Origin: an uncultured Planctomycetota bacterium
GTDB lineage: Bacteria > Planctomycetota > Planctomycetia > Gemmatales > Gemmataceae
DNA length: 64,000 nucleotides
Assembly: GCA_963849325.1 (NCBI GenBank)
Contig: CAWKHF010000002.1
Span: 448,001-512,000, forward strand
Reading direction: 5' to 3'
The notes under the pieces are model-generated. The model was given only the letters and a program-made list of their open reading frames with translations, was not told where the DNA came from and ran no database searches. Shown here one piece after another: positions 391 through 36,770 of the stretch. Position 1 is the stretch's first letter; each line of letters opens with the position of its first letter. The position numbers were made by a program, and so were the translations under genes.

Positions 391-414
391 GAATCTGTAA
401 TAGAAGGGTACGCC

Positions 415-1656: not shown

Positions 1657-1673
1657 GTTGTCCTCCCTGCACG

Positions 1674-1759
1674 AAAAAAGGGACTAGGGACTAGGGACAA
1701 GGGACTGGAGAAGAAGCCTCTTCTTCAGTCCCTTGTCCCTAGTCCCTAGTCCCTTTTTT
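1674..1759. repeat. Inverted heptamer tandem repeat (GGGACTA-type) hairpin with A6/T6 flanks; likely terminator
   Basis: AAAAAAGGGACTAGGGACTAGGGACAAGGGACTG (1674-1707) is the exact reverse complement of 1726-1759. Confidence 0.9.
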
Positions 1760-3082
1760 TCAGACAAATTTCGTCACGCCCGGACGAGCCACTGGCGGGA
1801 CCGGCAGCGACCCGAACTCGTAGGTCGGCGGCGACAGGTCTTCCTTGGAATTCAGCGCCATGTCCCAGGTGATGACCTGGCCGGTATACGTGGCCATGCG
1901 GCCCATGATCGCCATGAGCGTGCTCTTGGCCATCCATTCGCCGTTGTTGATCGGCTTGCCGGCGCGGATGCTGGCGAACAGATCGTCGTGTTCGTTTTGA
2001 TACATGTTCTCGGCATTCCGCCGGCCGCCGCGCGAACGCCAGAGAACATTGCGGCCGGGAACCGAAACGATCGAGCCTTGGGCCGCCAAAGCGTCGATGT
2101 GGCAGGTGCCTATGGTGCCCATAATGTGATCGGACACATCATTGGCACAGCCCTTTTGCTGACGGCAGGCGCTGAACAGCTTGACGCCGTTGGCGTATTC
2201 GTAAGTGACCGTGTGATGGTCGAAGATGTGACCATACTCAGGCTCGGTCCGCACCTGCCGGCCTCCGCTGCCGACGGCGCTGACGGGATATTCGTTTTTC
2301 ATCGCCCAGGCCATCTTGTCGAGGCTGTGGACATGCTGCTCGACATTGAAATCGCCAGACAGCCAGGTGAAGTACAGCCAGTTGCGCAGCTGCCATTCCA
2401 TGTCGCTCCAGCCAGGTTGCCTTTCGCGCTTCCACAAGGGTCCGATGTTGTAGGTACATTGAAGGGCGGTTATGTCGCCGATCGTGCCTTCGTGAACGCG
2501 CTTCATCGTCTCCTGCATGCCGTGGTGATAGCGCCAGCACAGGCCGGCTACGACCGCGAGGTTCTTCGCCTTGGCTTCCGCGCAGGCTTTCAGTACGGCG
2601 CGGACGCCGGGTCCATCAACGGCGCACGGCTTCTCGGCGAAGATGTGCTTGCCCGCCTCAACCGCCGCCTGGAGATGGATCGGCCGGAAGTGCGGAGGCG
2701 TTGTCAGCAGTACCACGTCCACCAGCGGAATGACCTGCTTGTAAGCGTTGAAGCCGGTGAAACAGCATTCCGGCTCGACCTCGACGCGGCTGCCGACGGT
2801 CTTACTTTTCTGGAGGCGTGTCAGGCTGTCTTGCAGACGGTCGGAAAACATGTCGCCCATGGCGACGAGCTTCGTGTTCTTGTCGGCGGTCAGCGCCTGC
2901 TCGGCGGCGCCGGTGCCTCGGCTGCCGCAGCCGATCAGGCCGATGCGGAGGACGTCGCTGCCGCCGGCGTGGACGTTAGGGGCCAGCGAGGTAAACGTGG
3001 CGGCGGCGGCCGCCGCCGCGGCGCCGGCCAGGAAATCGCGCCGCGTGGCCGCGGCTTTCGTCGAGGAGGTTTCGTGCGTCAA
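1760..3082 (-). CDS. Tat-exported Gfo/Idh/MocA family oxidoreductase
   Basis: TRRDFL twin-arginine signal, IGLIGCGSRG, EKP motif; TTG start after AGGAG RBS. Confidence 0.9.
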   Translation of the reverse strand: MTHETSSTKAAATRRDFLAGAAAAAAAATFTSLAPNVHAGGSDVLRIGLIGCGSRGTGAAEQALTADKNTKLVAMGDMFSDRLQDSLTRLQKSKTVGSRVEVEPECCFTGFNAYKQVIPLVDVVLLTTPPHFRPIHLQAAVEAGKHIFAEKPCAVDGPGVRAVLKACAEAKAKNLAVVAGLCWRYHHGMQETMKRVHEGTIGDITALQCTYNIGPLWKRERQPGWSDMEWQLRNWLYFTWLSGDFNVEQHVHSLDKMAWAMKNEYPVSAVGSGGRQVRTEPEYGHIFDHHTVTYEYANGVKLFSACRQQKGCANDVSDHIMGTIGTCHIDALAAQGSIVSVPGRNVLWRSRGGRRNAENMYQNEHDDLFASIRAGKPINNGEWMAKSTLMAIMGRMATYTGQVITWDMALNSKEDLSPPTYEFGSLPVPPVARPGVTKFV

Positions 3083-3162
3083 GGTCGGATCTCCTATTGC
3101 GGAGGGAGGAAGGCGAGGCAAGCCATCGTAGATTGTATTAGGCGCATCCGGGCCTGTCCCTG

Positions 3163-4710
3163 TCAAGGATTGGCCTCTGCTTCGCCGCGCGGAAAGATCT
3201 CCCCAGCGAGGCGAGCGGCCTCCCTCGCCGTGGCGAGGAGCTGGTGAAAGACTTTACGGACCTTGCTCTCATCGATCTCGGCGCGGAGGCAGCGCAGCAG
3301 GGCGACCCCGTGGGCCTCGGCCAGCTGCCCGGCCACGGCGGGCAACAGCCACTCCTCGATACCATATACCTTCCCGGCCATCGTACAGATGGGAACCACT
3401 CCCGTCGCGTAGGCGCCGACTTGCTCCCACACCGCCGCCAGCGCTTGCTGGATGTTCTCTTCTTTGCGGCGAGACGGCTGCCGCCAGTCGTAGGGGGGCG
3501 ACCACTCCAGGGCCGGCGAAAGCAGATCAATGTGTGTCACCACGACGAGCAGAGGCGGTTGCTTCAACTCCGGGTGGGAGGCGAACCATTCTCGCAGCTC
3601 GTGCAGCACTTGCACGTCGGCTTGCCGGGCCGGGTTGCGCGCGTGCAGTACCAACAGCATCAAGTCCGACTGCCGGGCGCTGTCGCAGGTCACGGCGAGT
3701 TGATCGGCCTTGGCCCCCTCGTGTCCGTAACCGACCGTATCGAGAAGGACCAAATCGGCAGGGACGCCCTGGGGGTGCAAGTGATACCGCGTCACTCCCG
3801 CAGTCGCCGGCAGCACGTCCGTCAGAGCCTGTTGCTCACCGAGCAAGGCGTTGATGAGGCTGGATTTCCCCGCCTTCACCTGCCCGAGTACCGTCACCGT
3901 TACCTGGCGGGCGGACGGCGCCGGTTGAGTTGTCGTAGGCTGTGCGGCGCTCGGGAGCAACTCGCGGAAGCGGTCGGCGCCGATTCGGAGCCGGCCGCTG
4001 TTCAGCTCCACCAGATACGTTCCGAGGCGATGGACGTAGGCGGTGTAAAACCACAGGATCAAGTTCTGTTGCAGCATTTGCCAGGGCTGCGACAGACCCA
4101 GCTTCGACGCGGTAAAACGCGCTCCCGTTTCCAGGGGCGAGAACAGGGCCGTGATCGCCCAGTACACGTTGCTTGCCGGCTGATACCAGTCGAGGGCCTT
4201 CTTGGCGCGGCGCCAGTCCTTGATGGTCAGCAGATGGCCGCCGGGTACGTAGCGATCCACCAACTCCGCGAGATCGTGCGCGGCCAACTCAATGACGGCC
4301 AGGATTTCCGGCACGGTCAAGTTGGAGATGGGATCGCTTGTCCCCGGATGATAGAAGACGGCCAACTCGGCAGCCATTTCCTCCGCCGTGGTCAGATAAT
4401 GGCCCAGATTGCTCATTTTCTCCGTCGGCAGGGAATTGGCCGCCTCCGCCCGCGCCTCGACCAAGCGCCAGGCTTGCTGGTCGCGCTCGGTCCAGTGGCG
4501 GGGGGCACTGAAATCGGGGGGATGCAGCAGCACGCGCTTGCGCTGCCAGTACCAGCCAAGGGTGTAGCCGAGTCCCACGCACAGGGCCAGAGGCCACCAG
4601 GCGAAGAATCCCCAGCGCAGCGTCCATAGATAGTAGGAACCGGCGCCTGCCAGGAACAGGAAAGGTACGACCGTTAGGCCAATTACCAGCAGGATACGCC
4701 AGCGGCTCAT
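3163..4710 (-). CDS. Membrane-anchored P-loop GTPase (Era/YeeP-like G domain)
   Basis: Two N-terminal TM segments; G1 GQVKAGKSS, G3 DTVG, G4-like THID. Confidence 0.8.
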   Translation of the reverse strand: MSRWRILLVIGLTVVPFLFLAGAGSYYLWTLRWGFFAWWPLALCVGLGYTLGWYWQRKRVLLHPPDFSAPRHWTERDQQAWRLVEARAEAANSLPTEKMSNLGHYLTTAEEMAAELAVFYHPGTSDPISNLTVPEILAVIELAAHDLAELVDRYVPGGHLLTIKDWRRAKKALDWYQPASNVYWAITALFSPLETGARFTASKLGLSQPWQMLQQNLILWFYTAYVHRLGTYLVELNSGRLRIGADRFRELLPSAAQPTTTQPAPSARQVTVTVLGQVKAGKSSLINALLGEQQALTDVLPATAGVTRYHLHPQGVPADLVLLDTVGYGHEGAKADQLAVTCDSARQSDLMLLVLHARNPARQADVQVLHELREWFASHPELKQPPLLVVVTHIDLLSPALEWSPPYDWRQPSRRKEENIQQALAAVWEQVGAYATGVVPICTMAGKVYGIEEWLLPAVAGQLAEAHGVALLRCLRAEIDESKVRKVFHQLLATAREAARLAGEIFPRGEAEANP

Positions 4711-4730: not shown

Positions 4731-5917
4731 TCAGGACTTGTTCGTCTTCCAGGCTTGCTCGGCGCGGGTGAGTTGGCCGCGGTAATAGCGACGCAACTCC
4801 TCCGGTTGCGGTACGTGGCCCTGGTGGACGGCCTGGTAGTAAAAACAGAACGCCTTGCCCAGCGCGAAGGTGGATGCACTGGCCAGGGCGCTGCTGGCCA
4901 TCGTACCCAGCACCGGCCCGACATAAGGGACGTACTTGAGCAGCAGCCGCGAACCCTGCCGCAACAACATGCCCAGGCCGAGCGTGCTGGCGATCTCCAG
5001 GAAACGCGGTGCGGTCAGAGGTTGGCCGTACAGCTGCGCCAGGTGATATACCATCCGCGACTGAATGCCGGACAGCAGGACCAGATCGACGATAGGCACC
5101 GGCATGGCGCCGGCGCTGCCGGCGAGGGTGCTGTAACCGACGATGTACGGCAGCGCCTGCCGGGCGTAGAAGTCTTGCAAGTCGCGGCTGGCCTCTCCCA
5201 GCGAGAGCAAGGTCTGGCGGTAGGCTGCGGGCAGTAATTCGAGCAGTGCATCGCGCAGCGGCGCTCCGCCGTAGTCGGGATCGTTAAAGCCTTCCTCGGC
5301 CGTCGTCAGGTCCACCGCGACGACGCGATCGATCAGACCCTCGAAACGCCGGCGCTGTTCCGCGAGGCTGCGCAACAGATCAGACGGCAGGGCAGGGGAG
5401 TCGGTCCTCGGTTCGGCGTTTGGCCCGAAAGGGTAGGGGAGGGGGTGCTGCTGTTGCGGATACGCTTCGTGCAGGCACGTCAGCACCAGCAGCACCGGCC
5501 GAGCGACCTTCGCCGCGCGGATGGTGCGCAGGTGCGTCAGGACGTTCGCCTGAGCATGATCCAACGCCTTGACGGTGACGATCAACACCTGCGCCTGGTC
5601 GTTGAACGCGCGAGATCCTCGGCCGGATCGTAGCCCGGCTCATCGAGTCCGCGCGTGTCGAGAAAGGTGAGCAGCGGCGCCTCCCGCAGCGGAAACTGGT
5701 ACTGACGCGAGAAGCGCGTGCAGGGTTGAAAACCCTTACCGATCTCGGCGGATTCGGCGCCGGTCAGCGATCGGATCAGCGACGTTTTGCCGCTTTGGGT
5801 CTTGCCCAGCAGCCAGAAGACCGGCACGGGCATCTGTTGCCGCAGTCGTTCGAGGTACTCCTGCAAGCGCGACTCCCGCGCCGAGGCCGAAAATAGGTGC
5901 TTGATGCGCTCGAACAT
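4731..5917 (-). CDS. GTPase with C-terminal YcjF/DUF697-like membrane domain; frameshift near 5600
   Basis: G1 GKTQSGKTS, G3 DTRG. C-terminal AGAMPVPIVDLVLLSGIQSRMVYHLAQLYG is typical of DUF697. Confidence 0.75.
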
Positions 5918-6177
5918 CACGCGATCTCGGCGACCAAGCGGGACCGCATCGGCCTGATGGGAGGGCGAAACGGCGCCGCTTGAGGGGACTGGGGCCTTCA
6001 CGGACTTTATTGTAAGCACCCTCCGCCGCCCAGTGTCCAGAAGCGCGGCGAATCTCGAATTGAAGGCGACAGATCGTCTTGACGCGCCTGGGGGAATGGG
6101 CTATGTCCGCAGGTGTTTGGGGGGACGACCGCCGGCACCGAGCGGCGGAGGGACCGATTCGGAACGAGGGCAGAGGC

Positions 6178-7065
6178 ATGGCGGAATCCTATTCCCGTAA
6201 GCTGCAACTCTGGGAAGGCTGGATGCCGGCGCTCGTCAAGGGGCCGTCGCCGCCCGTACTCGGCGAGCGCGTTTTGGCCGGACCGCAGCACGTCCCCGAG
6301 TTCGCCGACCGCCTCTACGCCGGCGAGACGCTGCACGCCAATGGCCGTCTCCCGGAAGGGGCGGCGCCGTTCACCTTGCAATGGTTCCTCGACATCGAGA
6401 ACGCCCGCCACAGCCGGCAGGGCCGCTGGATTCCGCGTCTCCTGGAGTTCGCCAAGCACGGCGGAGAGACACTCCTGGGCCTGGGCAATGGTCTGGGCAC
6501 CGACTGGATTCAATACGCCCGCCACGGTGCCGATGTCATCGCTTGCTCTCCTTCCGCCGAACAACTCACCCTGATTCAGCGCAATTTCGAGCTGCGTGGT
6601 CTCCGCGGCGTCTTCCTGCACGCCAATCCGCGGGCCATCCCCCTCGAATCGGCCTCGATCGACGTGGTGTGTGTGACCAATCTCTTGCAGGACATTCCCG
6701 ATCCGCCGAGTGTCATTGAGGAGATTTATCGCCTGCTCAAACCCGGCGGCAAGGTGCTGGCCGTTACGCCGGCTCGTTACGACATCGATTTCTGGCGCCG
6801 CCGCTTTCTGCCCTGGCACGCCTGGTTGCGCTCGCGGCGCAGGCCAACCCTGCCGGCGGCTGCCTGCAGCGGTCGAGGTCTCCGTCAGCAGTTCAGCCGG
6901 TTTGTCGAAGCGCGTGTCTACAAGCGTCACCTGCGCCGCTCCGAGGTGCCCCATCTGTGGCGGTGGATGCCGCATCCGCTCCTGGAACGGCTGTTCGGAC
7001 GAGTCCTGGTCATCAAGGCTTTCAAACCCCTGAGTGCCGCGACCGCGGTGCAGATGGCCGCATAA
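6178..7065 (+). CDS. Class I SAM-dependent methyltransferase
   Basis: LGLGNGLGTD motif I-like, IPLESASIDVV, EIYRLLKPGGK. Confidence 0.8.
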   Translation: MAESYSRKLQLWEGWMPALVKGPSPPVLGERVLAGPQHVPEFADRLYAGETLHANGRLPEGAAPFTLQWFLDIENARHSRQGRWIPRLLEFAKHGGETLLGLGNGLGTDWIQYARHGADVIACSPSAEQLTLIQRNFELRGLRGVFLHANPRAIPLESASIDVVCVTNLLQDIPDPPSVIEEIYRLLKPGGKVLAVTPARYDIDFWRRRFLPWHAWLRSRRRPTLPAAACSGRGLRQQFSRFVEARVYKRHLRRSEVPHLWRWMPHPLLERLFGRVLVIKAFKPLSAATAVQMAA

Positions 7066-7069
7066 ACCT

Positions 7070-7151
7070 GAATAGGGAATAGGGAATAGGGAATAGGGAA
7101 TAGAGGCGAGAAATGACGGTCCCTATTCCCTATTCCCTATTCCCTATTCCC
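7070..7151. repeat. Inverted heptamer tandem repeat (GAATAGG)n / (CCCTATT)n
   Basis: About 5 copies at 7070-7103 and about 4 inverted copies at 7121-7151, directly after the stop codon. Confidence 0.9.
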
Positions 7152-7157
7152 TCTCTT

Positions 7158-7436
7158 GGAAAACACAGCAGGCCCACGAACCGAAGTTCGTGGGCCTGTG
7201 CGTTGGGATAAACTCGAGGTAGTGGCTCCCAGCGCGAGGTGGCGACTCAACGCGAGCGCCACCCAGCCACTACCTCGATGGCTCAGAGTCGGAGCGCCTG
7301 TCTGACTGAACCCTAGCCGACACCGGAGGGACCAGCAAGGCGATAGATCGAGTTGGAGTCTCTTTTCCGGCATCTAGAGTTCCGAAGGTGACGGTTGCGT
7401 CAGCTGGCCCGATTGCAGGGATCGCAACGGCCACCT
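7158..7436 (-). ncRNA. Candidate structured non-coding RNA with terminator-like end; family unknown, strand tentative
   Basis: Four consecutive stems (7169-7198, 7214-7278, 7309-7381, 7386-7436). The last minus-strand stem has a C(UUCG)G loop followed by a U-rich tail. No credible ORF. Confidence 0.4.
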
Positions 7437-7459
7437 GCTAGCACGGAGTATTCCGCATC

Positions 7460-7819
7460 ATGCCGCGTTTCGTCATTTTGGAACACGATCATCCGTTGCT
7501 GCACTGGGACTTCATGCTGGACTCGGGAGCGGCCTTGAGGACGTGGCGGTTGGCGACGTCACCCCGCACCGGCGAGGCAATCGACGCCCTCGCCATTTTC
7601 GATCATCGCTTGATGTACCTGGATTACGAAGGCCCCATCCACGGAGATCGCGGCCGGGTCGTCCGCTGGGAGCACGGCACATTTGACTGGGAGATTCAGG
7701 AAGCGGACCGGATTGTGGTGCGTCTGCACGGTGAACAGCTGCGGGGTGTTCTGCGGTTGGAACAGGTGACGGAGGACAACTGGCGCGGCGCGTTTCTGGC
7801 TGACACGCCCGACTCGTGA
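7460..7819 (+). CDS. Stand-alone LigD-type 3'-phosphoesterase domain protein
   Basis: RFVILEH..PLLHWDFML, TWRL, DHRLMYLDYEGPI..DRG.V..WE.G motifs. Confidence 0.8.
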   Translation: MPRFVILEHDHPLLHWDFMLDSGAALRTWRLATSPRTGEAIDALAIFDHRLMYLDYEGPIHGDRGRVVRWEHGTFDWEIQEADRIVVRLHGEQLRGVLRLEQVTEDNWRGAFLADTPDS

Positions 7820-7855
7820 ACAGGGCAGGGGAGAGGGGAGCGGAGCCTTCTGGAA

Positions 7856-8590
7856 TCAATCGGTCTGGAACTTGAAACCGAGAAGGGGGTTGGCCAGGAA
7901 CGCCCGCAGCGATGCCGGATCCTTGGTGCGGCCCTGGATGTGGATGGCCCCCTGGTCCAGTTTGATCAGCTCCAGTTCCAGGGTCGGGTGAGGCTGTTCG
8001 GCCTGGAAGCGGAGCAGAGCGACGGGGAAACCCTCATCTCGATACCAATCCACGCCGATGCCGTTGTCCTGGCAGGTCTTGGTGATGTTCTCCAACAGCG
8101 ATTGCGCCGAGATCGGCAGGGCGCCGGCGTGAAAGCCCACCAGTTTCAGGGCGACGACATTCGGCTCGCCTTTGACCAGCCACAGGCGCAGGTCGATGGA
8201 GATGACGGTACTCCATAGACCACTGCCGTAGCGGAAGGCCACGCGAACCTTGTCCGGTTCAATGACGAGGCGCGGTTGGCTGATGCCCTCGGGCAGCAGT
8301 TGTTTGTCGAGTCGGGTCTGCACGAAATGCTCGGCCAGGTAACTGTTGATCTCGCCGTCACTGAAACAATGTCCCCATTCTTGATCGTCATGGTCGGTGA
8401 CGGAGTTGAGCAGCTTCATCAATTCGCGTTGGCACTTCTCCGAGAGTTGGTGCCGCGTTTCGCCGGGAGGCACGGCCGCCCGCAGATACAGACGCGGTTC
8501 GTAGCGGACCAGCATCCACAAAGTCGTGCCCACCCCGCAGGTCAGGCAGAAGAAAATGCCGATTGCCAGGAAAAACGATCGACGACTCAT
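7856..8590 (-). CDS. Hypothetical protein with N-terminal membrane anchor
   Basis: 244-aa ORF with a hydrophobic N-terminus and globular composition. Confidence 0.65.
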   Translation of the reverse strand: MSRRSFFLAIGIFFCLTCGVGTTLWMLVRYEPRLYLRAAVPPGETRHQLSEKCQRELMKLLNSVTDHDDQEWGHCFSDGEINSYLAEHFVQTRLDKQLLPEGISQPRLVIEPDKVRVAFRYGSGLWSTVISIDLRLWLVKGEPNVVALKLVGFHAGALPISAQSLLENITKTCQDNGIGVDWYRDEGFPVALLRFQAEQPHPTLELELIKLDQGAIHIQGRTKDPASLRAFLANPLLGFKFQTD

Positions 8591-8689
8591 CCGTGGGCCT
8601 CCTGCCGAACGAAGCGGCCGCGCTCCGTCGATTGCGGAGCGACCCGCGGACGGGATAATCTATCTTCGGAAAAAGATCAACGGCGACCT

Positions 8690-8868
8690 CGCTGCCTTCC
8701 GGCGACTGCGGATGACAAGGTGACAAGGTGACAAGGTGACAAGGTGACAAGGTGACAAGGTGACAAGGTGAAGAGAGGAAAACGAGGAGGGGTGGCAGAC
8801 TGCGAAGACTGTCACCCCTCATCCTGTCACCTTGTCACCTTGTCATCCGCAGTCGCCGGAAGGCAGCG
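8690..8868. repeat. Inverted repeat: (TGACAAGG)x7 plus an inverted copy of the neighbouring gene's last 26 nt
   Basis: 8690-8715 is the reverse complement of 8843-8868. Octamer array at 8713-8768; degenerate inverted array at about 8810-8845. Confidence 0.9.
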
Positions 8869-10249
8869 CACTCAACAATCGTCCCATCAAGCCGACGGAC
8901 TCGTCCGCTTGCGCTTCCGTGAGGACCAGCGGCGGGGCGATGCGGACGACCTTTCGCGCCAGCGGTCCCAGAAGGTGGATGCCGTCGCCTCCCGGAGTCT
9001 CGCCGAGGTAACAGGCCAGCACGGCGGCGTTGGCCCATTCGCCGGCCGTGCGGCCGGCGTGGTCGCGGAACTCGAGGCCCCAGACCATGCCGCCCTTCTC
9101 GCCGCGGACGCGGGCGACGAAAGGCAATTCCTTCAAACGCAGCAGTCCTCGCTCGAGGATGGCGGAGCTGCGGCGGGCGCGGGCGAGCACGTCGCCGGCG
9201 GCGAACTCTTCCAGCGTGGCCAGGACGGCCGCACAGCACAACGGATTGGCGCTCCAGGTGTCGGAGCCTTCGCCATAATCGAGACTGGCCAGCACATCGG
9301 AACGGCCCACGGCCGCGGCAACCGGCACACCGTTGCCGAGTCCCTTGCCCAGGACCACAATGTCCGGCTCCAGTCCGTAGGTCTCGTAAGCGAACAGATC
9401 GCCGGTACGGCCGAAGTTGGCCTGGACCTCGTCGAGAATAAAGATCAGGTCGTGTTCGCGGCAAAACGCCTGCAACATCCGCAAATAGGAAGCAGGGGGG
9501 TGGTAGGAGCCACCGCCGCCGAGGTAAGGTTCCGTGACGAGTATGCTCAATCGCCGTCCGAATTGATGCACCAGCGCATCCAGCTCTCGACGGTAAGGGG
9601 CTGGGTCGAACGGTTGCCCGCGCTGGCTGACGTCGGCGCACTCGGTCATCGGGAAGCTGAGGAAGCGCACACGGGGGTCGCGGTCGTGATCCGTCTCGCA
9701 GCCCGTGACGGCGCCGGCCAATCCTTTTTTGCCGTGAAAGCCGTAGCGCGTGGCCACGATCATGTCGCGGGTTCGGTCGCGGGCCAGGGCGGCCCACAGA
9801 GCTTTCTGGATGGCCTCGGAGCCGGACGCGGCCCACAATACTTGTTGCAGACGGCTTCCGCCGGGCCGGCCTTGCAGCACCTCGAGCAAGCGCTGGCTGG
9901 CGTCGATCTCCACGGGGGTCACGGCGTTGTACGCGGTCAAGGGCAGGGCGGTGAAATACTCGCCGCCCGCGTCCGCTGCCGAGAGCGACCCGGCAGCCGG
10001 CCATTTCATGTACTGGATGAAGCGCCGCATCCACGACTGCGGATTGTGCCCCAGGTTGGCGACGAGCACTCCCGACGTGAAGTCGTACAGCCGGCGTCCC
10101 TCGGGAGTCCAGTGGAAGACGCCGGCACTTTTGGCGAGGACGGCCAACGTCGGCGTATAAGTCCGCAAGGCGCGCGGCTCGCAGCCCAGGAGACCGTCGC
10201 GGATCGTGTTGGAAGACGCCTCCTGGGGGTGATGGAGCGGGTCAGTCAT
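8843..10249 (-). CDS. Class III PLP-dependent aminotransferase
   Basis: YDFTSGV..NLGH, SGSEAIQKAL, GFHG, ILDEVQANFGRTG, PDIVVLGKGLGNG (PLP lysine). Confidence 0.9.
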   Translation of the reverse strand: MTDPLHHPQEASSNTIRDGLLGCEPRALRTYTPTLAVLAKSAGVFHWTPEGRRLYDFTSGVLVANLGHNPQSWMRRFIQYMKWPAAGSLSAADAGGEYFTALPLTAYNAVTPVEIDASQRLLEVLQGRPGGSRLQQVLWAASGSEAIQKALWAALARDRTRDMIVATRYGFHGKKGLAGAVTGCETDHDRDPRVRFLSFPMTECADVSQRGQPFDPAPYRRELDALVHQFGRRLSILVTEPYLGGGGSYHPPASYLRMLQAFCREHDLIFILDEVQANFGRTGDLFAYETYGLEPDIVVLGKGLGNGVPVAAAVGRSDVLASLDYGEGSDTWSANPLCCAAVLATLEEFAAGDVLARARRSSAILERGLLRLKELPFVARVRGEKGGMVWGLEFRDHAGRTAGEWANAAVLACYLGETPGGDGIHLLGPLARKVVRIAPPLVLTEAQADESVGLMGRLLSALPSGDCG

Positions 10250-10269
10250 GGCAACTCCCGGAATAGAGA

Positions 10270-11574
10270 TCAAACCGGATCCGCATAGAGTACGACAGGC
10301 TCGGGCTGTGCCGGAGTTTTGAGGACCAATCCCCCGCGGGGATCGTTCACCATCACGATACAACCCGGTTGGCCGGCGGCGTGACGCTGTAAGATCGCTT
10401 CGAGGGCTTGGATCGTAGCCACCGTCGCCCGGTCGGCCGATAGCTCGTTGTAAGCCAGACCGCGCATCCGCTGCACGCGCTGCTCGCGTTCGCCCGTTGG
10501 TCCGCCGAATTCAACATGGGCCACTTCCTCGAAGAAATGCCTCAATACCTCGACTCCGTAGCCGCGCTGGCTCCGCTCGTCCCACGGCTCCAGGAACGCC
10601 GCGTTGTAATGATGGTTGGGCGTGTATTTCATATCGATTGGCGTCTTCCCTTCCACGGTCACCTCGACGCCGCGCTTGCGCTGATGCGCCAGCCAGATGC
10701 CGTTGTCGAACCGGAACTGCACTTCCTGTTCGACGTAACCGGGGAAGTTGTCGGGCGTGACCCAGCTCGTATGGATGTCGAAGGCCGCTTCGCGGCCGTC
10801 GGGGTAGACATAGACCATTTGCAGCTGCACCGAGTCCCAGGTGGGGCCGTTGGCTGGCCCAACGAGGCCGCGTTGTCCGGTGGCGCTGACGCGGCCCAGA
10901 CGCGGCCCTCCGGCCAGGGAAGCGGCGAACGTGAAATCGATCAGCTTGACGTAATGCACGGCCACGTACGTCCCCGGATTGCGTCCGCTGATCCATTCGG
11001 CGAACTGCTGGCCGCTAATCTGCTTCGGTTCCAGCAGGGAACAGTATCCGTTGTTGACGTGACAAAGGACGCCATCGACGACGTGGGTACGCAGTTTTTT
11101 GTGATCGGGGTCGGCGAGCTTGTGATAGACGACCTTGGCGAGCACCCCCTGCCGGCGTGCGAGGGCGTTCAGCTCATCTAGTTCCTGAAGACGCAGTACT
11201 GAGGGTTTCTCGATGAGGACGTGTTTGCCCGCCTGAAGGACGCGGTGCGCGGCATCGAAGTGTCGATCGTCCGGCGTGGCGACGCAGACGGCATCAACGC
11301 CCCGGGCGAGAAGTTGCTCGATCGCATCGGGACCGCTGCAATTGGCGAACGGCCCCAGTCTCGCACCGGCGCTTTGCCGCAAACGCTCGCCGCGCTGACC
11401 CGTCCGACTGGCGACAGCAGTCAACGCCACGTCCACGAAACCGAAGTCCCGCCGATACAGTCCCTCGGCGTGCAGCTGCTCGAAGAGCGGCCGATAGGTC
11501 TCCTCAAAGATCATGCCCAGGCCGACCATTCCCGCGCGGAGCTGATTACGGCCGAGGTTCGCGGTTATTTGCAT
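10270..11574 (-). CDS. Cytoplasmic Gfo/Idh/MocA family oxidoreductase
   Basis: GMVGLGMI, VCVATPDDRH, GKHVLIEKP; 20 nt upstream of the aminotransferase. Confidence 0.85.
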   Translation of the reverse strand: MQITANLGRNQLRAGMVGLGMIFEETYRPLFEQLHAEGLYRRDFGFVDVALTAVASRTGQRGERLRQSAGARLGPFANCSGPDAIEQLLARGVDAVCVATPDDRHFDAAHRVLQAGKHVLIEKPSVLRLQELDELNALARRQGVLAKVVYHKLADPDHKKLRTHVVDGVLCHVNNGYCSLLEPKQISGQQFAEWISGRNPGTYVAVHYVKLIDFTFAASLAGGPRLGRVSATGQRGLVGPANGPTWDSVQLQMVYVYPDGREAAFDIHTSWVTPDNFPGYVEQEVQFRFDNGIWLAHQRKRGVEVTVEGKTPIDMKYTPNHHYNAAFLEPWDERSQRGYGVEVLRHFFEEVAHVEFGGPTGEREQRVQRMRGLAYNELSADRATVATIQALEAILQRHAAGQPGCIVMVNDPRGGLVLKTPAQPEPVVLYADPV

Positions 11575-11772
11575 GTGGGCATCATAGGCCGCTTCGTGGG
11601 GAAGAAAAGTCCGGGAGAGGTTCACTTGCGGGTGCCCCGCTTTCGCGTCCATTGCAAGCTATAGTTGAAACACAACCCCGCGGGGAGACAAGGGCCATCG
11701 GCCACGAGGGCACCGTCCGCTCTTCGCACCCCGAGAGGGAATGACAACGCCTTGACAGAGAAGGCAGGTATC

Positions 11773-12810
11773 ATGAGCGGCCCTCCATCCCCGGCAGCGC
11801 CGGTGCTGAGCATCGTCATTCCGCTGCTTAATGAGGAGGCGGTGCTCGACGAGACCTATCGCCGACTCAAGGAACAGCTCGACCGCCTGGGCGAGAGCTA
11901 CGAAATCATCTTCGTCGATGACGGCAGCACGGATCGTTCGCGCGCCCTTCTGGCCGCGAAAGCCCTGATCGATCCCGCCGTCCGCGTCGTCGGCCTGTCG
12001 CGCAACTTCGGCCACGAGATGGCGACGACGGCCGGCTTGCAGTATGCCCGCGGCCAAGCCGCGGTCGTCATGGACGCTGACCTGCAAGACCCACCCGAAC
12101 TCATCGAGCAGTTCCTCGCCCGCTGGCGCGAAGGCTATCAAGTCGTTTATGGGGTGCGTCAGGAGCGCAGAGGAGAAAGCCTTCTAAAAAAAGTTACCTC
12201 CTATCTTTTTTATCGCCTTATGGGTCGCATCGCTGACGTACCCATCCCGGCGGACACCGGCGACTTTCGCTTGATGGACCGCCGTGTCCTGGAGGTGTAT
12301 CGCCAGTTTCACGAGGAACCCCGTTTCTTCCGTGGTCTGATTGGCTGGGTCGGGTTCCGACAGGTCGGCGTCCCGTTTGTGCGATGTCACAGGGCAGGGG
12401 GCCATACCAAGTATCGCTATGGCCGTCTGATCAAGCTCGCCTTCGACACCATCACGGCATTCTCAACGCTGCCGGCCCTGTGTATTACCTTGTTGGCCGG
12501 AAGTTTGGCGGGGCTGAGCATGCTTTTCTTGGGCGTGGTCGTCCTGCTCTGGGCGGTGGGATGGCTCGCCCTGGAAGGCTGGATGGGAGCTGCCCTTGGT
12601 TTCTTGTTGCTGTGGAACGTGCAATTCCTGAGTCTGGCGATCCTTGGCGAGTACGTGGTGCGGACTCATCGTCACACGCAGCGCCGGCCTCTGTTCGTCG
12701 TGGACACCGTCATCGAAAACCTAGCCCCGGTTGACGATGGCCGAGCGGCAAAGCCGGAGCGGGATGAGGTGACACTCATCTGTCACCCTTCCTCCCTTTG
12801 CGCTCGGTGA
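11773..12810 (+). CDS. GT2 polyprenol-phosphate glycosyltransferase (GtrB/ArnC-like)
   Basis: SIVIPLLNEE, VDDGSTD, LSRNFGHE, MDADLQDPPE, TGDFRLMDR, two C-terminal TMs. Confidence 0.92.
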   Translation: MSGPPSPAAPVLSIVIPLLNEEAVLDETYRRLKEQLDRLGESYEIIFVDDGSTDRSRALLAAKALIDPAVRVVGLSRNFGHEMATTAGLQYARGQAAVVMDADLQDPPELIEQFLARWREGYQVVYGVRQERRGESLLKKVTSYLFYRLMGRIADVPIPADTGDFRLMDRRVLEVYRQFHEEPRFFRGLIGWVGFRQVGVPFVRCHRAGGHTKYRYGRLIKLAFDTITAFSTLPALCITLLAGSLAGLSMLFLGVVVLLWAVGWLALEGWMGAALGFLLLWNVQFLSLAILGEYVVRTHRHTQRRPLFVVDTVIENLAPVDDGRAAKPERDEVTLICHPSSLCAR

Positions 12811-12843: not shown

Positions 12844-14526
12844 ATGCAGACCTCGGCCTGCTCGCCTGCGGAACCCGTTCGCGTTCTCCGTGATCCTCCC
12901 GACAGCATCTCGCCGCGTGCTGACAATTCGTCGTCCGTTCCTCTCCGTTGGTATCGGCTCAGCGGGGCCGACGTGGTTTTTTTCGTGCTGGCGTTTATTG
13001 TCTTCCTGACAGCGCGGCAGGGATTGTTGGATGATCCCGGCCTGGGTTGGCACCTGCGGAATATCGATGCGATGTTGGCGGAGGGCGGTTGGCTGACGGT
13101 GGATTCGTTCTCGGAGCCGCGCGAAGGCCAACCGCGTCCGTGGCGCAGTAATCAATGGCTCGGCGAAATACCATTCTGGCTGGGCGAGCGTTGGGCGGGT
13201 TTGGAAGGCATCGCGGCCGTCGCCGCGGTCGTCATCGCTTTCACCATGCGCTGTCTGTACCGCATGTCTCTCCGCGACGGTTCACCCTGGCCGGTAGCCG
13301 TCTTCTGGACCTCGCAAGCAGCGATGGGCGTTTCTTGCTCGTGGGTTGCCCGACCGAATTTATTCACCATGCTCTTCGTGCTGGTGACGGCCCGGATCTG
13401 CGTTCGCTTCCACGAGGGCCGCTGCTCTCGTCGCAAGACCCTCTGGCTGGTCCCCTTGTTTGGCCTCTGGGCCAACATCCACGGTGGGTTCGTGGCCGGC
13501 TTCACTCTCCTCGCCGCCACCACGTTGATCGAGATGGCCCTGACCCTCTTCGCGGGAAATGCGGAAGCCAGACTGGCAGCGCGAGGCCGTGCCGTCCATC
13601 TTCTTCTGCTGCTGTCCGGCGCGTTTCTCGCCACGCTCGTCAATCCTTACGGTCTGTCGCTTTATCCGTGGATCTTCCAACTTCTCGGCGATCCATTCTT
13701 CATGGATCTGCATCTCGAATGGAAGTCGCCGGACTTCCACGGCAAGGGGGCGATCCGCTTCGAGTTGCTGATGCTCCTCTTTCCGATGTTGCTGGCACTG
13801 AGCAAGCGCCGGCCGAACCTCGTGGAGTTGGGACTCGCCCTGTTGTGGTTCCACTTCGCGTTGACTGGGTTCCGCTACGTGCCGTTGTGGGTGGTTATCG
13901 TCGTCCCTCTGCTGGCGCGTTCCAGTCTCGAAGTGCCCTGGTGCCGAAACCTGGCCCAGCGCCTTGTCTCTTCGGGGAAGGAGGGAAGAGGGTCGTTGTT
14001 CTCCTTCGCGCCGACTGGGGTGCCGTGGATGGGGACGTTGCTCGGCGTCGTGGTCCTCTTTGGAATGGCCCGCTGCGCCGAGGGACGCCTGGCCCGTCAT
14101 CAACCTGAGATCATTGCGGCAGATGCCCTCGACCGCTTCTTGCAGATTCATGCCGAGTGGAGGCAAACGCATGGCCGGCGACCTGTCGTCTTCCATTCCT
14201 ACGACTGGGGCGGCTACCTCACCTGGCATGGCGGCCCCGACTTCCGCAACTGGATCGACGACCGCAACGAGGTCCAGGGCAAGGAACACGTCCAGGAGTA
14301 TTTCTCCATCCTTGAAACGGACCCCGGCTGGAACGACAAGCTCGATCGCGCCGGCGTTCAGCTCATCTGCATCCAGGCGAATGCACCGTTGACCTTCCGC
14401 CTTGCCGAGAGCCGGTCGTGGCGCGAACGGTATCGGGACTCGTGGGCGGTCATCTTTGAACGGCGAAGCCATATCGAGGAATGCTCAAGACCCACCGACC
14501 TCGCCGTTCCTAAGTTCCTGCCCTGA
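12844..14526 (+). CDS. Polytopic membrane protein, GT-C-fold glycosyltransferase-like
   Basis: DDPGLGWHL after TM1, ARPNLFT, LWANIHGGF, NPYG, YDWGGYL, IDDRNEV; follows the GT2 gene. Confidence 0.7.
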   Translation: MQTSACSPAEPVRVLRDPPDSISPRADNSSSVPLRWYRLSGADVVFFVLAFIVFLTARQGLLDDPGLGWHLRNIDAMLAEGGWLTVDSFSEPREGQPRPWRSNQWLGEIPFWLGERWAGLEGIAAVAAVVIAFTMRCLYRMSLRDGSPWPVAVFWTSQAAMGVSCSWVARPNLFTMLFVLVTARICVRFHEGRCSRRKTLWLVPLFGLWANIHGGFVAGFTLLAATTLIEMALTLFAGNAEARLAARGRAVHLLLLLSGAFLATLVNPYGLSLYPWIFQLLGDPFFMDLHLEWKSPDFHGKGAIRFELLMLLFPMLLALSKRRPNLVELGLALLWFHFALTGFRYVPLWVVIVVPLLARSSLEVPWCRNLAQRLVSSGKEGRGSLFSFAPTGVPWMGTLLGVVVLFGMARCAEGRLARHQPEIIAADALDRFLQIHAEWRQTHGRRPVVFHSYDWGGYLTWHGGPDFRNWIDDRNEVQGKEHVQEYFSILETDPGWNDKLDRAGVQLICIQANAPLTFRLAESRSWRERYRDSWAVIFERRSHIEECSRPTDLAVPKFLP

Positions 14527-14570
14527 CTCACGTTCTGTCCGTTCGGGCGTCCCAAAACGCTATCCATTTA

Positions 14571-14598
14571 ATTAAACATAAGATCTCTTATCGGACGT
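14571..14598 (-). other. dif-like XerC/XerD recombination site (11-6-11); candidate chromosomal dif
   Basis: Minus strand ACGTCCGATAA-GAGATC-TTATGTTTAAT. The XerD arm differs by 1 nt from E. coli TTATGTTAAAT. AT-rich intergenic position where KOPS-like polarity switches. Confidence 0.75.
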
Positions 14599-14647
14599 TA
14601 CCCTTTCGACCGCGTTTCTATCTTTGAAATCGAAGGGCCAACGAGTA

Positions 14648-14676
14648 ACGTCCGATAAGAGTTCATTATGTTTAAT
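14648..14676 (+). other. Second, inverted dif-like site with a 7-nt central region
   Basis: ACGTCCGATAA-GAGTTCA-TTATGTTTAAT; both arms are identical to those of the 14571-14598 site. Confidence 0.7.
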
Positions 14677-14836
14677 TAATGCTTGGTTCGCCGCTCGTCA
14701 CAACTTCCGAAAGCACAAGGGTTTATCTATGTTCTCCAGAAGACCGGCAACGCCTGAGAACTGACCTTGACCGAGATGTCGCTAAACGCGATACAGCCCA
14801 GAGCCGAACCGAGTTCGCGCCGCATGGAGGAGAGGC

Positions 14837-16573
14837 ATGGCTGGTTGGAGCAAGAGCCGACTGCTGGAGGGAACGTGGCTGCTGTTCTGGATCGTGGCCA
14901 GTTCCGCCTGGTGCGTCTCGGCATCGGCACGCCTTGGGGCCACCTTCGACGAACCGACATATCTCAACCTGGGACTGGAGAACTGGCGTTCGGGTAGCTC
15001 GAAGCGCTTGCTCGATCTGGGAACCATGCCCCTACCCGCCCATGTTCAGACGCTCCCCCTTCATCTCTGGGAGCGCTGGTGCGGAGAGCCGTTGGATACG
15101 AGTCGGAACCTGGACCCGTTGTTGCCGGTGGCCCGGCTGGGTACCCTGCCGTTCTGGTGGCTTCTGCTTGTCTATGGCTGGCTGGCGGGTCGCCAGATGG
15201 CCGGTCCCTGGGGCGGAAGGTTGTCGGTGGCCCTTCTGGCCTGCGAGCCAAACTTGCTGGCTCATGCAAGCCTGGCGACCACCGATGTCGCGGTGTCGGC
15301 GTGTTTGCTGGCCTTGCTGTACCACTTCAAAATCGGCAGGGATTGTTCGTGGTGGCGTCGCGTCCTGGTGCCCGCTGGGTGGTTCACCCTGGCCGTGTTG
15401 ACCAAGGCGTCCGGCCTCGTGTTCGGAGTGATCGGCCTGGCCATGGTCGAACTGGAGCATTACCTCACCACGTTCGGGGAGAAGGAAAGTCTGACCTCAC
15501 GAGTGCGAATTGCCATCGCCTCCTTATTTCGGCCTCCGTTTCGGCGCGATTTGTTCCACATCGTTACCCTGGCTCTGATAGCGGTGTTCTGGTATTGCGG
15601 CTCGGACTGGATCGTGTCCCCCTCCTTCGTCGCCTGGGCGAAACAGCTGCCCGAGGGGCCGGCCCGATCCGGGCTGCTGTGGTTCGCGGAGCATCTGCGA
15701 ATTTTTAGCAACGCCGGAGTGGCCCTCGTTCGTCAAGTCCGCCACAACGTCCAGGGCCACGGCGTCTTTCTGCTGGAACAAGTGGAAAGACGGGCCATCT
15801 GGTACTATTTCCCGCTGGCGCTGACCATCAAATCGCCCCTGCCTCTACTGGTGCTGCCGCTGTTGCTTGCCGCGACGTGTCGCCAAGCCCTGCGGAACTG
15901 GGCCTGCCTCGCGGCCGGCGCTCTTTTCCTGTTCAGTTTCGTGTGTCGCGTCCAGACGGGCATCCGCCTGGTGTTACCTCTCGTCAGCCTCGCCGTGGTC
16001 GGACTCTCGGCCGCCCTGATCGTGGCCCGGCACAACCTCACGTCGAGCCGCTTGCGCCCTGTCCTGACGGCGACCGCGGTCCTGAGCGGGGGCTGGCTCA
16101 TCTGGGCCGCCGTGTCGGTCTGGCCGCATGGTTTGTGTTACACGAACGAGCTGTGGGGTGGAACGGCGAACGGTTATCGCCGCCTCAGCGATTCCAATTA
16201 CGATTGGGGCCAGGGATTGAAGGAGCTGGCGCGCTGGCAGCAGACGCATCAGGTGCGCGATCTGGATGTGTTATATTACGGCACGGACACGACCCTTAGG
16301 CAACTGCCCATGCGTCCGATCGCCATAGCGAAACTGGAACTGGGACCGGATCAGCTGCCCCTCGCCTTTCAAGGTCGCACGGTCGCCGTGGGCACCTCGA
16401 TCGTCTACGGCAGCGTGAGCGACACTCAAGACAAGCTGCGGGCGCTGGCTCACTCGTTGCGGCGCCATACGCCCGTGGACCGAACTACGACGTTCCTTAT
16501 CTACCGCTTCCCTGCCAGCGACGAAATGGCCACGGCCCAGGCCCAAGAGCGGCTGAACCAAGAAACTCCCTGA
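14837..16573 (+). CDS. GT-C glycosyltransferase (ArnT/PMT_2-like)
   Basis: ATFDEPTY, EPNLLAHASLATTD, LTKASG, GIRLVLP, LSDSNYDWGQGL. Confidence 0.85.
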   Translation: MAGWSKSRLLEGTWLLFWIVASSAWCVSASARLGATFDEPTYLNLGLENWRSGSSKRLLDLGTMPLPAHVQTLPLHLWERWCGEPLDTSRNLDPLLPVARLGTLPFWWLLLVYGWLAGRQMAGPWGGRLSVALLACEPNLLAHASLATTDVAVSACLLALLYHFKIGRDCSWWRRVLVPAGWFTLAVLTKASGLVFGVIGLAMVELEHYLTTFGEKESLTSRVRIAIASLFRPPFRRDLFHIVTLALIAVFWYCGSDWIVSPSFVAWAKQLPEGPARSGLLWFAEHLRIFSNAGVALVRQVRHNVQGHGVFLLEQVERRAIWYYFPLALTIKSPLPLLVLPLLLAATCRQALRNWACLAAGALFLFSFVCRVQTGIRLVLPLVSLAVVGLSAALIVARHNLTSSRLRPVLTATAVLSGGWLIWAAVSVWPHGLCYTNELWGGTANGYRRLSDSNYDWGQGLKELARWQQTHQVRDLDVLYYGTDTTLRQLPMRPIAIAKLELGPDQLPLAFQGRTVAVGTSIVYGSVSDTQDKLRALAHSLRRHTPVDRTTTFLIYRFPASDEMATAQAQERLNQETP

Positions 16574-16578
16574 GCCGG

Positions 16579-17577
16579 TCAAGAGGCTCCGCCGGCGATA
16601 CCCTGAGAGTCGTTCCCGGAGAGGAAGAAGCCCATCTTGCGGAACTTCTGGTAACGACCTTCCAGCAGCTCCTCCACCGGCAGCGGTCGAAGCTCGCGGA
16701 GATAGCGGAGAAGGTACGACTTCAAGGTCGTCGCCATTTCCCGTTGATCGCGGTGAGCGCCGCCGAGTGGTTCCGGGATGATGTCATCGATGACGCCCAG
16801 GCGCAGCAGGTCGCGCGCGGTCAGGCGCAACGCCTCGGCGGCGAGCGGCTTGGTCGTCTCGGTAGCGACCTTCCACAGAATGCCAGCGCAGCCCTCGGGA
16901 CTGATGACGGAATAGTAGGCGTGCTCCAGCAGACTAACGCGATCGCCGATGCCGATGCCCAGGGCACCGCCCGATCCTCCTTCACCGATGACCACGCAGA
17001 TGATGGGCGTCTCCAGGCGCGACATCTCCAGAAGGTTCGTGGCGATCAGCTGGGCCTGGCCGCGCTCCTCGGCGCCGATGCCGGGGAAGGCGCCGGGCGT
17101 GTCGATCAGGCACACGATGGGCAAGCGAAACTTGGCGGCCAGACGCATGTTCTTGAGCGCCTTGCGATAGCCCTCGGGATGGGCACAGCCATAGAAACAG
17201 TCAGTGCGTTCCTGCAGGGTGTGGCCCTTCTGATGGCCCAGGAGCACGACGCGGAAATCGCCCAGGCGCGCGAAGCCGCACCGCAGCGCGCGGTCGTCGC
17301 CGATGGCTCGGTCGCCGTGCAGCTCCACGAATTCCTCAAAGATGAGATCGACGTAATCCATCGTCTGCGGCCGATCGGCGTGCCGCGAGACCAGCACCGT
17401 TTGCCAGGGGTTCAGGCTGCTGTAGATCTTGCGCTTGAGGTTGACCAGTTCGCGGCGAATACGGCGGATTTCCTCGCTGCTGCCGAGTTGGCCGTTGGAC
17501 CCCGCTTCCAGACGCTCCAGCAGGTCTTCCAACTCGTAAATGTCGGACTCAAAAGGCAAACGATTGCGCGGAGGCAT
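16579..17577 (-). CDS. accA: Acetyl-CoA carboxylase carboxyltransferase subunit alpha
   Basis: LPFESDI, ELHGDR, PEGYRKA, IDTPGAFPGIGAEERGQ, GEGGSGGALGIG, YSVISPEGCA. Confidence 0.97.
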   Translation of the reverse strand: MPPRNRLPFESDIYELEDLLERLEAGSNGQLGSSEEIRRIRRELVNLKRKIYSSLNPWQTVLVSRHADRPQTMDYVDLIFEEFVELHGDRAIGDDRALRCGFARLGDFRVVLLGHQKGHTLQERTDCFYGCAHPEGYRKALKNMRLAAKFRLPIVCLIDTPGAFPGIGAEERGQAQLIATNLLEMSRLETPIICVVIGEGGSGGALGIGIGDRVSLLEHAYYSVISPEGCAGILWKVATETTKPLAAEALRLTARDLLRLGVIDDIIPEPLGGAHRDQREMATTLKSYLLRYLRELRPLPVEELLEGRYQKFRKMGFFLSGNDSQGIAGGAS

Positions 17578-17740
17578 GATTCGCTCCTCGACCCTCGGCC
17601 CGGCAACCGACTCCAGGCTGCGGAGTACAGGATACCGAAGAGACCCGATTGGGTCCAACTGCTCTTGCCCGTTCGACGAAGGCCGTGTTATCGACTATCC
17701 GCCGGCGGTGCAGGATCGAACGCCGATGCGGAGTCTCGAA

Positions 17741-26851: not shown

Positions 26852-27143
26852 GGTTCCCTACCGCTCTTGGACGATGGCGGCGCCGCGGAAGTTCCCGAAA
26901 GGCGGATTCGCCGAGCCGACAGCCCCCTGTGCGGCCGACGGCGTATCCGGAGCGGGTCGCGCGCTATGGAAGAGATCGATACCCGAAGCCGAAGGCGAAG
27001 CGCTAGTCATGATGCCACATCTCGCTTGATCCTGTCAAAAGGAACTGGTGAAGTCCCAGCTTCTTGTCTTCCCAGGGACCGCCTGCGGAGTTATAGACGG
27101 GTAATCCGTGTCCTGTCGGCCACGATCGGTCAGGGAGGATGCG

Positions 27144-28695
27144 ATGACGAGATGGACAAACGGTTCGCCGGAAAGGATGGGATCGACTTGTCGAGGCTCT
27201 CCTCGCTCGCCGTCGCCGCTCGCCATCGCCGTTTGCAGTGCCCGCCCCTACGCCGGCGGCTGGAACGACGGCAGCCGACTGGCCACCGTCGAATCCCTGG
27301 TCGATCAGCATACTTGGATCATCGATCGTTCTATCTTCGTCCAGGTGCCGCCAGCCTACGATGGCACTACCCCCCTGCCCTACGATCCCGCCGAGCCAGG
27401 CTTCTGCAGCACGGCACCCTCGACAAATTATTCATCGAGGGACACTATTACTCCGACAAATCGCCGGTTCCCGCCCTGCTGATGGCCGGCTGCTATCGAG
27501 TCTGTGCAAGTGGATGACCGGCTGGACCGCACGCACTCACCCGGATCAGTTCTGCCGGGCGATGACGCTGGCCTCTTCGGGACTGGCTTACGTCGTGGCC
27601 GTGCTGTGCATCTACCGTCTGGGCCGACCTCTGCGTTTGTCCCTGTCCGTGCGACTAGGTCCTGACCGCCAGTTTCGCCTTGGCCACGGTGGCCCTGCCC
27701 TACGTCCAGCACGTCAACAATCACATCCTCCTCCTCGGCGTGACGGCCGCGCTGGTTCTGGGCGTCGCGCGGTTAGTGGAAGACAAGAACGAGGGCCGGG
27801 TGTCGGGCTGGCGCTTCGCCGTCCTGGGCACGCTGGCGGGACTTGGGATACACGATCGATCTGGGCGTCGGTCCAGTGGTCCTGGTTTCGTACGTCGCTC
27901 TTCTGTCCTGAGTCTCTGCCGCCTCCCGTGGCCTGCGGAGCGGCGTCGGCTTCACCTGGTCCCCCTGTCATGTCTCTCTTCGTGCTGGGTGCCCTGCCCT
28001 GGCTGGTGCTGCATCATGCCCTCAACTACGCGATCGGCGGAACGTTCCAGCCGGCGAACGCGAACCCCGAGTATTTCTGCTGGCCAGGTTCGCCCTTCAG
28101 CGCTCGCAATCTTACCGGGAAGCTGGGTCCACGACGAGCCCGGGGTCGTTCCTCCTCTACGCCGCCAGCATGATGGCAGGCAAACGCGGCTTTCTGGGCC
28201 ACAACCTGCCTCTGTTCCTGGCCCTGCCGGCGCTGGTCGTTCTCTTGCGGCGTCACCGCGAATGTCGGCGCGAAGTGCTCTGGGCCGTGGGATGCTGTGC
28301 GGGCACCTGGCTGCTGTACGCCGCTACGTCGAATAATTCTTCGGGACAGTGCTGCTCCATCCGCTGGTTCGTGCCGCTGCTGGCTCCGGCCTATTACGTC
28401 CTGGCCCTGTTCTTGCAGCGCTATCCGCGATACCGCATGGATTTCCTCGTTCTCAGTGCCTGGGGAGTGCTTCTCGTCCTGTTGATGCGAGATGGACCTT
28501 GGCTGACGCACATGGTTCCCTTCTTCTGGCCGATCCAGGCCGCCGCCCTGGGCAGTTGGGCGTTGTGTTCTTACCTGCGCCGCCGAGTTGCGCGGACAGG
28601 CTCGCCTTGGCCTCATCCTCTTGCGGCCTCTACGCGACATCCGTATACTAATGAGTATGCCAAGAATCTCTCTCCAGGAGCGGCGGCCTCTCGTT

Positions 28696-28703
<8 letters not shown>
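27144..28703 (+). CDS. Polytopic membrane protein, GT-C-like; several frameshifts
   Basis: GGWNDGSRLATVESLVD, DKLFIEGHYYSDKSP, VNNH, SIRWFVPL; GGAGG RBS. Confidence 0.6.
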
Positions 28704-35712
<7,009 letters not shown>

Positions 35713-36720: not shown

Positions 36721-36743
36721 GTCCTTGGAAAAATCCGTCCCTG

Positions 36744-36770
36744 GTATGACGAATTGCGAAATCGTATGAT
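36744..36770 (+). promoter_or_regulatory. Candidate NikR-like operator overlapping a TATGAT -10 element
   Basis: GTATGACGAATTGCGAAATCGTATGAT resembles the E. coli nik operator GTATGACGAATACTTAAAATCGTCATAC; 45 nt upstream of the metal uptake genes. Confidence 0.4.

Follow-up and report, generated by a model that had tools for sequence, protein, structure and literature searches.

The canonical chromosomal dif system of E. coli (dif, XerC, XerD, FtsK and KOPS) is built on one site per chromosome, in which two 11-nt arms enclose a short centre and which lies in intergenic DNA of low G+C, with copies of GGGNAGGG converging on it. Carnoy and Roten list four hallmarks of dif: its arms form a palindrome, it lies between genes, its G+C is low and it is close to the terminus (PMC2731167). 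In vitro, FtsK50C of E. coli activates Xer recombination only if it is loaded on the XerD side of the site, and not from the XerC side (PMC2673442); FtsK halts at XerCD-dif from both sides (79% for XerD-first and 83% for XerC-first approach; PMC2800217). For the Planctomycetes, the phylum-wide dif survey of Kono et al., 2011, records 0 predicted sites in the 1 genome tried (PMC3025954). Our literature search, within the partial texts that it returned, turned up neither a planctomycete dif nor any conserved head-to-head (inverted) pair of chromosomal dif sites.

Three described systems contain more than one dif-like site. CTX attP, of the IMEX type, is carried on a phage genome and has two inverted sites (attP1 and attP2) 90 bp apart, with centres of 12 and 5-7 bp that are incompatible as duplexes (PMC4246890). 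The 'C modules' of Acinetobacter plasmids, which belong to the pdif family of modules, are defined by inverse XerC/XerD sites with the XerC sides internal; they carry genes, alternate with D modules and rearrange via matching centres (PMC13141974). Finally, dif-flanked microvirus proviruses of Bacteroidetes have extra dif-like sequences beside the chromosomal dif, an arrangement that has been likened to CTX; these extra sites are imperfect and flank 4.6-6.3 kb (PMC3091885).

Here we describe a locus in a 64-kb stretch of planctomycete DNA (the window) that resembles each of these systems in part. Like the canonical site, it has 11-nt arms and short centres, is intergenic and low in G+C, and has GGGNAGGG converging on it; unlike the canonical site, it consists of two complete head-to-head sites, which lie 26-59 bp apart across five loci, and the centres of the two sites differ, one of those in the window being 7 nt long. 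Like CTX attP, the inverted pair is predicted to fold into a hairpin in which the centre is partly mismatched and one centre is off-size, but it lies on the chromosome, is shared by several species, has arms that match the host type perfectly and comes without an element. Like the C modules, it has inverse sites with the XerC sides internal, but its interior of 26-59 bp is gene-less, its place is a predicted chromosome terminus and its centres are unmatched. It shares with the Bacteroidetes proviruses the presence of an additional dif-like sequence, but it has no cargo and its arms are perfect. The unit is probably the chromosome dimer resolution site (dif) native to a planctomycete close to Gemmataceae; its bipartite form would be specific to a Gemmatales lineage, with selection keeping both copies.

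The double site in the window

Table 1. Features at and around the double site, with positions in the window.
Feature	Position	Strand	Remarks
KOPS-type GGGNAGGG, six copies	5390-12399	+	left of the dif unit, reading toward it
GFO/IDH/MocA oxidoreductase	10270-11652	-	conserved left neighbour of the double dif
GT2 glycosyltransferase	11665-12810	+	conserved left neighbour of the double dif
560-aa protein	12844-14526	+	separates GT2 from the dif unit; without a Pfam or NCBIfam match
Bipartite dif unit (predicted), whole interrupted inverted repeat	14568-14679		repeat halves 14568-14601 and 14645-14679
Left dif site (predicted)	14571-14598	-	arms ACGTCCGATAA (XerC-type) and TTATGTTTAAT (XerD-type), 6-nt centre GAGATC
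Spacer	14599-14647		49 bp separating the inward XerC-type arms
Right dif site (predicted)	14648-14676	+	ACGTCCGATAA-GAGTTCA-TTATGTTTAAT; arms same as in the left site, 7-nt centre
578-aa protein	14837-16573	+	separates the dif unit from accA; weak PMT_2 likeness (24.3 bits; cut-off 26.1)
KOPS-type GGGNAGGG, eleven copies	15030-38903	-	right of the dif unit, reading toward it
accA (acetyl-CoA carboxylase carboxyltransferase alpha)	16579-17658	-	conserved right neighbour of dif
Sole opposite-strand motif right of the unit, GGGGAGGG	47467	+	

The unit lies between a stop codon at 14526 and a start codon at 14837 (Table 1). On the + strand its left site reads ATTAAACATAA-GATCTC-TTATCGGACGT, which on the - strand is ACGTCCGATAA-GAGATC-TTATGTTTAAT. 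We assign the XerC and XerD arms by analogy with E. coli dif, and with this presumed identity the two XerC-type arms face each other, while those of XerD type point outward, to the left in the left site and to the right in the right site. When up to three mismatches were allowed, the pattern of each full site had a single match in 64 kb, and no match of any kind was found in 100 shuffled sequences. The XerD-type arm, with up to one mismatch, was found in 64 kb at these two places only, and two or more occurrences were seen in 0 of 100 shuffles. The XerC-type arm alone is less telling, with two or more occurrences in 13 of 100 shuffles. The locus presents two 11-nt arms, a centre of about 6 nt, the conserved XerD-arm consensus, an intergenic position and low G+C (39% in the element vs 64% in the window); the arm pair, the intergenic position and the low G+C are the first three hallmarks of PMC2731167. 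It departs from the rule of one site per chromosome, since two complete sites stand 49 bp apart, and four related loci also have two sites.

Folded as single-stranded DNA, positions 14560-14690 reached -33.3 kcal/mol (z = -9.8), a value that none of 200 shuffles equalled. Within the folded hairpin the centres pair over 3 bp, then meet a T-T mismatch, and after 2 further bp an A is bulged out. A preliminary description of this DNA had reported two inverted dif-like sites with their XerC arms facing each other across 49 bp, set in an AT-rich island and able to form an ssDNA hairpin with a T-T mismatch and a 1-nt bulge in the centres; all of this was borne out. The long inverted repeat is also present, and extends slightly further than had been reported. 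In contrast, an inverted repeat that had been proposed for the 49-bp core itself did not rise above chance: its stem had z = -0.91, 32 of 200 shuffles folded equally well, and the spacer inverted repeat was likewise at chance in each of the four related loci. The island had also been placed between two glycosyltransferase genes. The gene on the right agrees with this at a sub-threshold score (PMT_2), whereas the gene on the left has no family, and the clear GT2 gene is found one gene further left. NCBIfam gave no name for either of the two flanking proteins, of 560 and 578 aa, and the genes showed no paralogy to one another (best E = 1.1).

A long AT-rich hairpin between genes could in principle belong to a MITE (a dispersed repeat), encode a structured RNA or result from faulty assembly. 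Dispersed copies, which the preliminary description had named as the sign of a MITE, were sought in the 64-kb window, which contained one unit and none dispersed; target-site duplication was absent from the ends of the unit. A search of Rfam returned only miRNA-precursor models far under their cut-offs (33 bits vs 94-140), and no tRNA lies in the window. The same layout recurs in five independent assemblies, among them a 2.9-Mb contig, which makes misassembly unlikely. Explanations of this kind are thus scarcely credible.

Conservation of the pair and of its neighbours

We scanned a genome collection with the pattern TCCGATAA-N6-8-TTATGTTWAAT and obtained at least 118 loci, from Sphingomonadales, Acidobacteriota, Bacteroidota, Nitrospirota, Planctomycetota and others. 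The genome of the window was not among the matches listed. Almost every one of these loci had a single exact site, as a chromosomal dif should, and the arms therefore belong to a widespread dif type. Three of the matches listed (L026, L034 and L067, labelled Gemmatales or Gemmataceae) contained two exact sites in - then + order. A relaxed scan added L021 (labelled Planctomycetota), whose second site has two arm changes. All four related pairs are laid out as in the window, with the XerC arms inward and the XerD arms outward. Among the matches listed, the arm variant of the window (ACGTCCGATAA with TTATGTTTAAT) was accompanied by a double site in 4 of the 4 loci having it; a second site was found in 0 of 9 other Planctomycetota loci, where the best inverted candidates had 6-10 mismatches in 18 positions. 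Given a sample of five genomes, Gemmatales with a single site may exist. In the Chryseobacterium loci L009, L011 and L029, the pattern-matched sites have a centre of 8 nt, not 6 nt.

Over the 10 sites of the window and the four related loci, 218 of 220 arm positions are identical, and the 2 exceptions both fall in the XerD arm of the left site of L021. In an alignment of the five loci, every XerC arm was preceded by an invariant A and every XerD arm was followed by an invariant T; apart from these arm-abutting bases, no column was invariant in the spacers or the outer flanks. The spacers measure 49 bp in the window and 26, 27, 46 and 59 bp in the relatives, and their sequences are unrelated. 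No two of the 10 centres are alike; in L026, the closest relative, the site on the same side as the right site of the window has a 6-nt centre, TAGTTA. Left and right centres were unequal in 5 of 5 pairs, including the base adjoining the XerD arm (5 of 5, an outcome expected by chance about 1/4 of the time). In the hairpin, 2 to 5 of 6 centre positions pair over the five loci, without a fixed pattern. The distances from centre to centre are 54, 55, 74, 77.5 and 87 bp. These spacings fall within about 1/3 of a helical turn (Rayleigh-type Monte Carlo p = 0.044-0.060, n = 5), a result that supports no claim.

The neighbouring genes were compared by tblastn. The GT2 protein is 72% identical in L026 and 68% in L021, the GFO protein is 76% identical in L026 and 59% in L067, and accA is 77% identical in L034, which has the double site, and 59-62% in L045 and L073, which have a single site. 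Neither the 560-aa nor the 578-aa protein had a match in the four related loci. Judged from these sequence comparisons, the double-dif locus is orthologous, and partly syntenic, across five species-level genomes. With neighbour proteins only 59-77% identical, neutral DNA should have diverged, and the spacers are indeed unalignable. Because the arms are near-invariant all the same, both arm sets appear to be under purifying selection. A native double-dif architecture had been put forward in the preliminary description as the alternative reading, and the near-invariant arms, the five genomes and the partly syntenic locus support it.

Some further features of the neighbourhood were observed. Synteny breaks exactly at the dif unit. 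Each relative retains, of the neighbours seen in the window, those to one side of the unit but not those to the other. Two membrane proteins that are missing from the relatives (those of 560 and 578 aa) separate the unit from its conserved neighbours in the window. In two more distant Planctomycetia MAGs, a single dif is found beside accA (L045, 4350-5372; L073, 4714-7052), and the linkage of dif to accA thus seems older than the doubling. Elsewhere in the window, a 1126-aa protein (55791-59171, +) has sigma-70 regions 2 and 4 fused to long WD40 beta-propeller arrays, and a separate WD40 protein is encoded at 35900-36889 (-).

We considered whether the pair could be the scar of a CTX-type integration through a single-stranded hairpin, in which one site would come from an inverted attP half and the spacer would be the former loop. 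By our derivation, such an event would produce, in this order, an inverted half of attP, then the loop, then a rebuilt dif, with the XerC arms inward. The observed pair of inverted dif-like sites, which folds into a hairpin with a bulged centre, has this form; the inverted sites and the 5-7 bp centre of CTX attP (PMC4246890) and the extra dif-like sites of the Bacteroidetes microvirus proviruses (PMC3091885) also speak for it, as do the weaker head-to-head pairs that lie next to dif in L033, L099 and L103, three loci of Bacteroidota. However, the five genomes differ in how the centres pair within the hairpin, and the arms are perfect, unlike degenerate attP-like arms. Of the genomes with this arm variant, albeit a small sample, 5 of 5 contained the pair, at a partly syntenic locus, and no variable presence among hosts was seen. 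A third dif-like site (attL; up to 4 mismatches in 18) was found neither in the 64-kb window nor in L021, L026, L034 or L067. Pfam detected no integrase, Rep, phage or IS/transposase domain in the 53 window proteins or in the 21 proteins scanned from related loci, and the 131-bp element had no match at E up to 1 in phage and plasmid collections. The preliminary description had itself remarked that the window holds no element genes and no third site, which is correct and applies equally to the four related loci. Its headline, an IMEX attP-like hairpin or junction scar, is not supported by a conserved pair with near-invariant arms and neither cargo nor a third site. Since related species share the double arrangement, the pair does not look like the trace of a virus, and we regard integration as a distinctly improbable origin.

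Clusters of dif-like sites were seen in four other loci. L033 (Bacteroidales) has a direct copy and an abutting inverted pair at 7815-7927; L099 (Cyclobacteriaceae) has a head-to-head pair with one centre of about 9 nt at 3062-3135; L103 (Flavobacteriales) has several sites in about 1.4 kb without an ORF of at least 70 aa (2304-3557); and L118 (Methylococcaceae) has three or four direct copies at 165-3660. These clusters look like IMEX footprints. When the 111 loci with enough flank were examined, a good second site stood head-to-head in 9 and in direct orientation on the XerC side in 4, and was found in none of the 111 tail-to-tail or on the XerD side. This bias fits the idea that the side of FtsK approach matters, but it also fits IMEX biology.

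The pair might instead be a gene-less dif module of the C type, or an invertible switch, with XerC and XerD flipping or moving the 49-bp core. Inverse sites with internal XerC sides are exactly what defines the C modules of Acinetobacter plasmids (PMC13141974). In the five loci, however, the 26-59 bp interior holds no gene, the context is chromosomal and housekeeping, and the centres are unequal within every pair. Looping by tyrosine recombinases has a minimum of roughly 80 bp; the centres are 54-87 bp apart in the five pairs, and two of these pairs lie under that minimum. We found no conserved sequence and no promoter-like or terminator-like site in the core, nor any promoter-like or terminator-like site in the surrounding 14300-14950. 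A module or switch is, in our view, very improbable.

Finally, one of the sites could be the working dif and the other a tolerated inverted duplicate in slow decay. The off-size 7-nt centre of the right site in the window, the two substitutions in the XerD arm of the left site of L021, and the sufficiency of one site in every other phylum sampled are all compatible with this. Yet just 2 of 220 arm positions differ over five genomes whose spacers cannot be aligned, and the imperfect copy lies toward accA in the window but toward GT2 in L021, so that neither copy is dispensable throughout. Sites that are presumably functional, such as those of Chryseobacterium (L009, L011 and L029), can likewise have centres of 7 or 8 nt. 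Decay of a redundant copy is thus unlikely as a general account, although one copy may be weakened in some lineages, as the 7-nt centre in the window and the XerD-arm changes in L021 suggest.

Strand polarity of octamers and GC skew

The flanks of the five loci were read toward the site, and the two strands were compared in an octamer search without a prior motif (2157 octamers tested). The most strand-skewed of all 2157 was GGGCAGGG, with 19 copies toward the site and 0 away (pooled from the window, L026, L034 and L067). This octamer matches the E. coli KOPS consensus GGGNAGGG, as quoted in PMC2800217. In the window, GGGNAGGG was on the + strand in 6 of 6 copies to the left of the unit and on the - strand in 11 of 12 copies to the right (Fisher p = 3.8e-4), and the flip between strands occurs between 12392 (+) and 15030 (-), bracketing the dif unit. 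This was also true for the related loci, with 8 copies toward the site and 0 away, giving a pooled ratio of 25:1 for the five loci (p = 8e-7). The polarity is not an effect of gene strand, because most copies of GGGNAGGG and GGGCAGGG are antisense to the genes that hold them. The B. subtilis-type SRS word had no polarity (2:2). The density of KOPS copies dropped beyond about 39 kb in the window.

Thus, the double site lies at a point of converging FtsK-orienting polarity, and the flip of GGGNAGGG at the site supports the earlier suggestion of a likely replication terminus. An E. coli-type KOPS word is found polarised here in a planctomycete, which implies, at the level of sequence, that FtsK loading would be KOPS-guided in such a bacterium.

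GC skew was weak and noisy in the window (+0.022 in the left flank and -0.000 in the right); it lends the terminus weak support without settling its place. It was higher on the left than on the right in all five double-site loci, by small margins, and in 82% of the 51 loci with at least 2 kb on both flanks. A region at about 27000-35000 is richer in G+C (67-70%) than the rest of the window (about 63%), and its GC skew is strongly negative; apart from one partial UvrA-interaction domain, most ORFs there lack a Pfam match.

Possible workings of a bipartite dif

If the unit is the native dif, XerC and XerD are predicted to occupy both of its sites. None of xerC, xerD and ftsK is encoded in the 64-kb window, and the native reading assumes that they are present elsewhere in the genome. 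Sister chromosomes would then recombine at sites of the same side, left with left and right with right, whose centres match. Exchange of left with right would be disfavoured, because the centres differ in every pair and the sites are only 54-87 bp apart. Two crossovers would cancel if both sites fired on one dimer. In the least certain step, FtsK loaded at KOPS on either replichore would meet an outward XerD first, making the unit a symmetrised dif; with its XerD arms pointing outward, a head-to-head pair would offer XerD to both replichores.

By analogy with the behaviour of FtsK in E. coli, the purpose of the pair may be that FtsK from either chromosome arm meets XerD first, an explanation that we put forward tentatively. 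A symmetric unit has no obvious advantage, because E. coli works well with one dif and dif works in either orientation in vivo. A stronger version, in which an obligate 'symmetric dif' evolved in Gemmatales, with FtsK from either replichore docking on an outward XerD and mismatched centres enforcing like-with-like exchange, is somewhat more doubtful.

The double dif has consequences of a practical kind. It provides a sequence marker of the terminus in genomes with weak GC skew, and dif predictors built to find one hit would mis-call or reject double-site loci. It also offers a natural test of whether the side of FtsK approach at XerCD-dif matters in vivo. If the symmetric arrangement is real, a rule known solely from in vitro work on E. 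coli, that of the side of approach, would be a selective force on a natural chromosome. These planctomycetes are budding bacteria that lack FtsZ, and a symmetric dif, if confirmed, might relate to the transfer of DNA via the bud neck.
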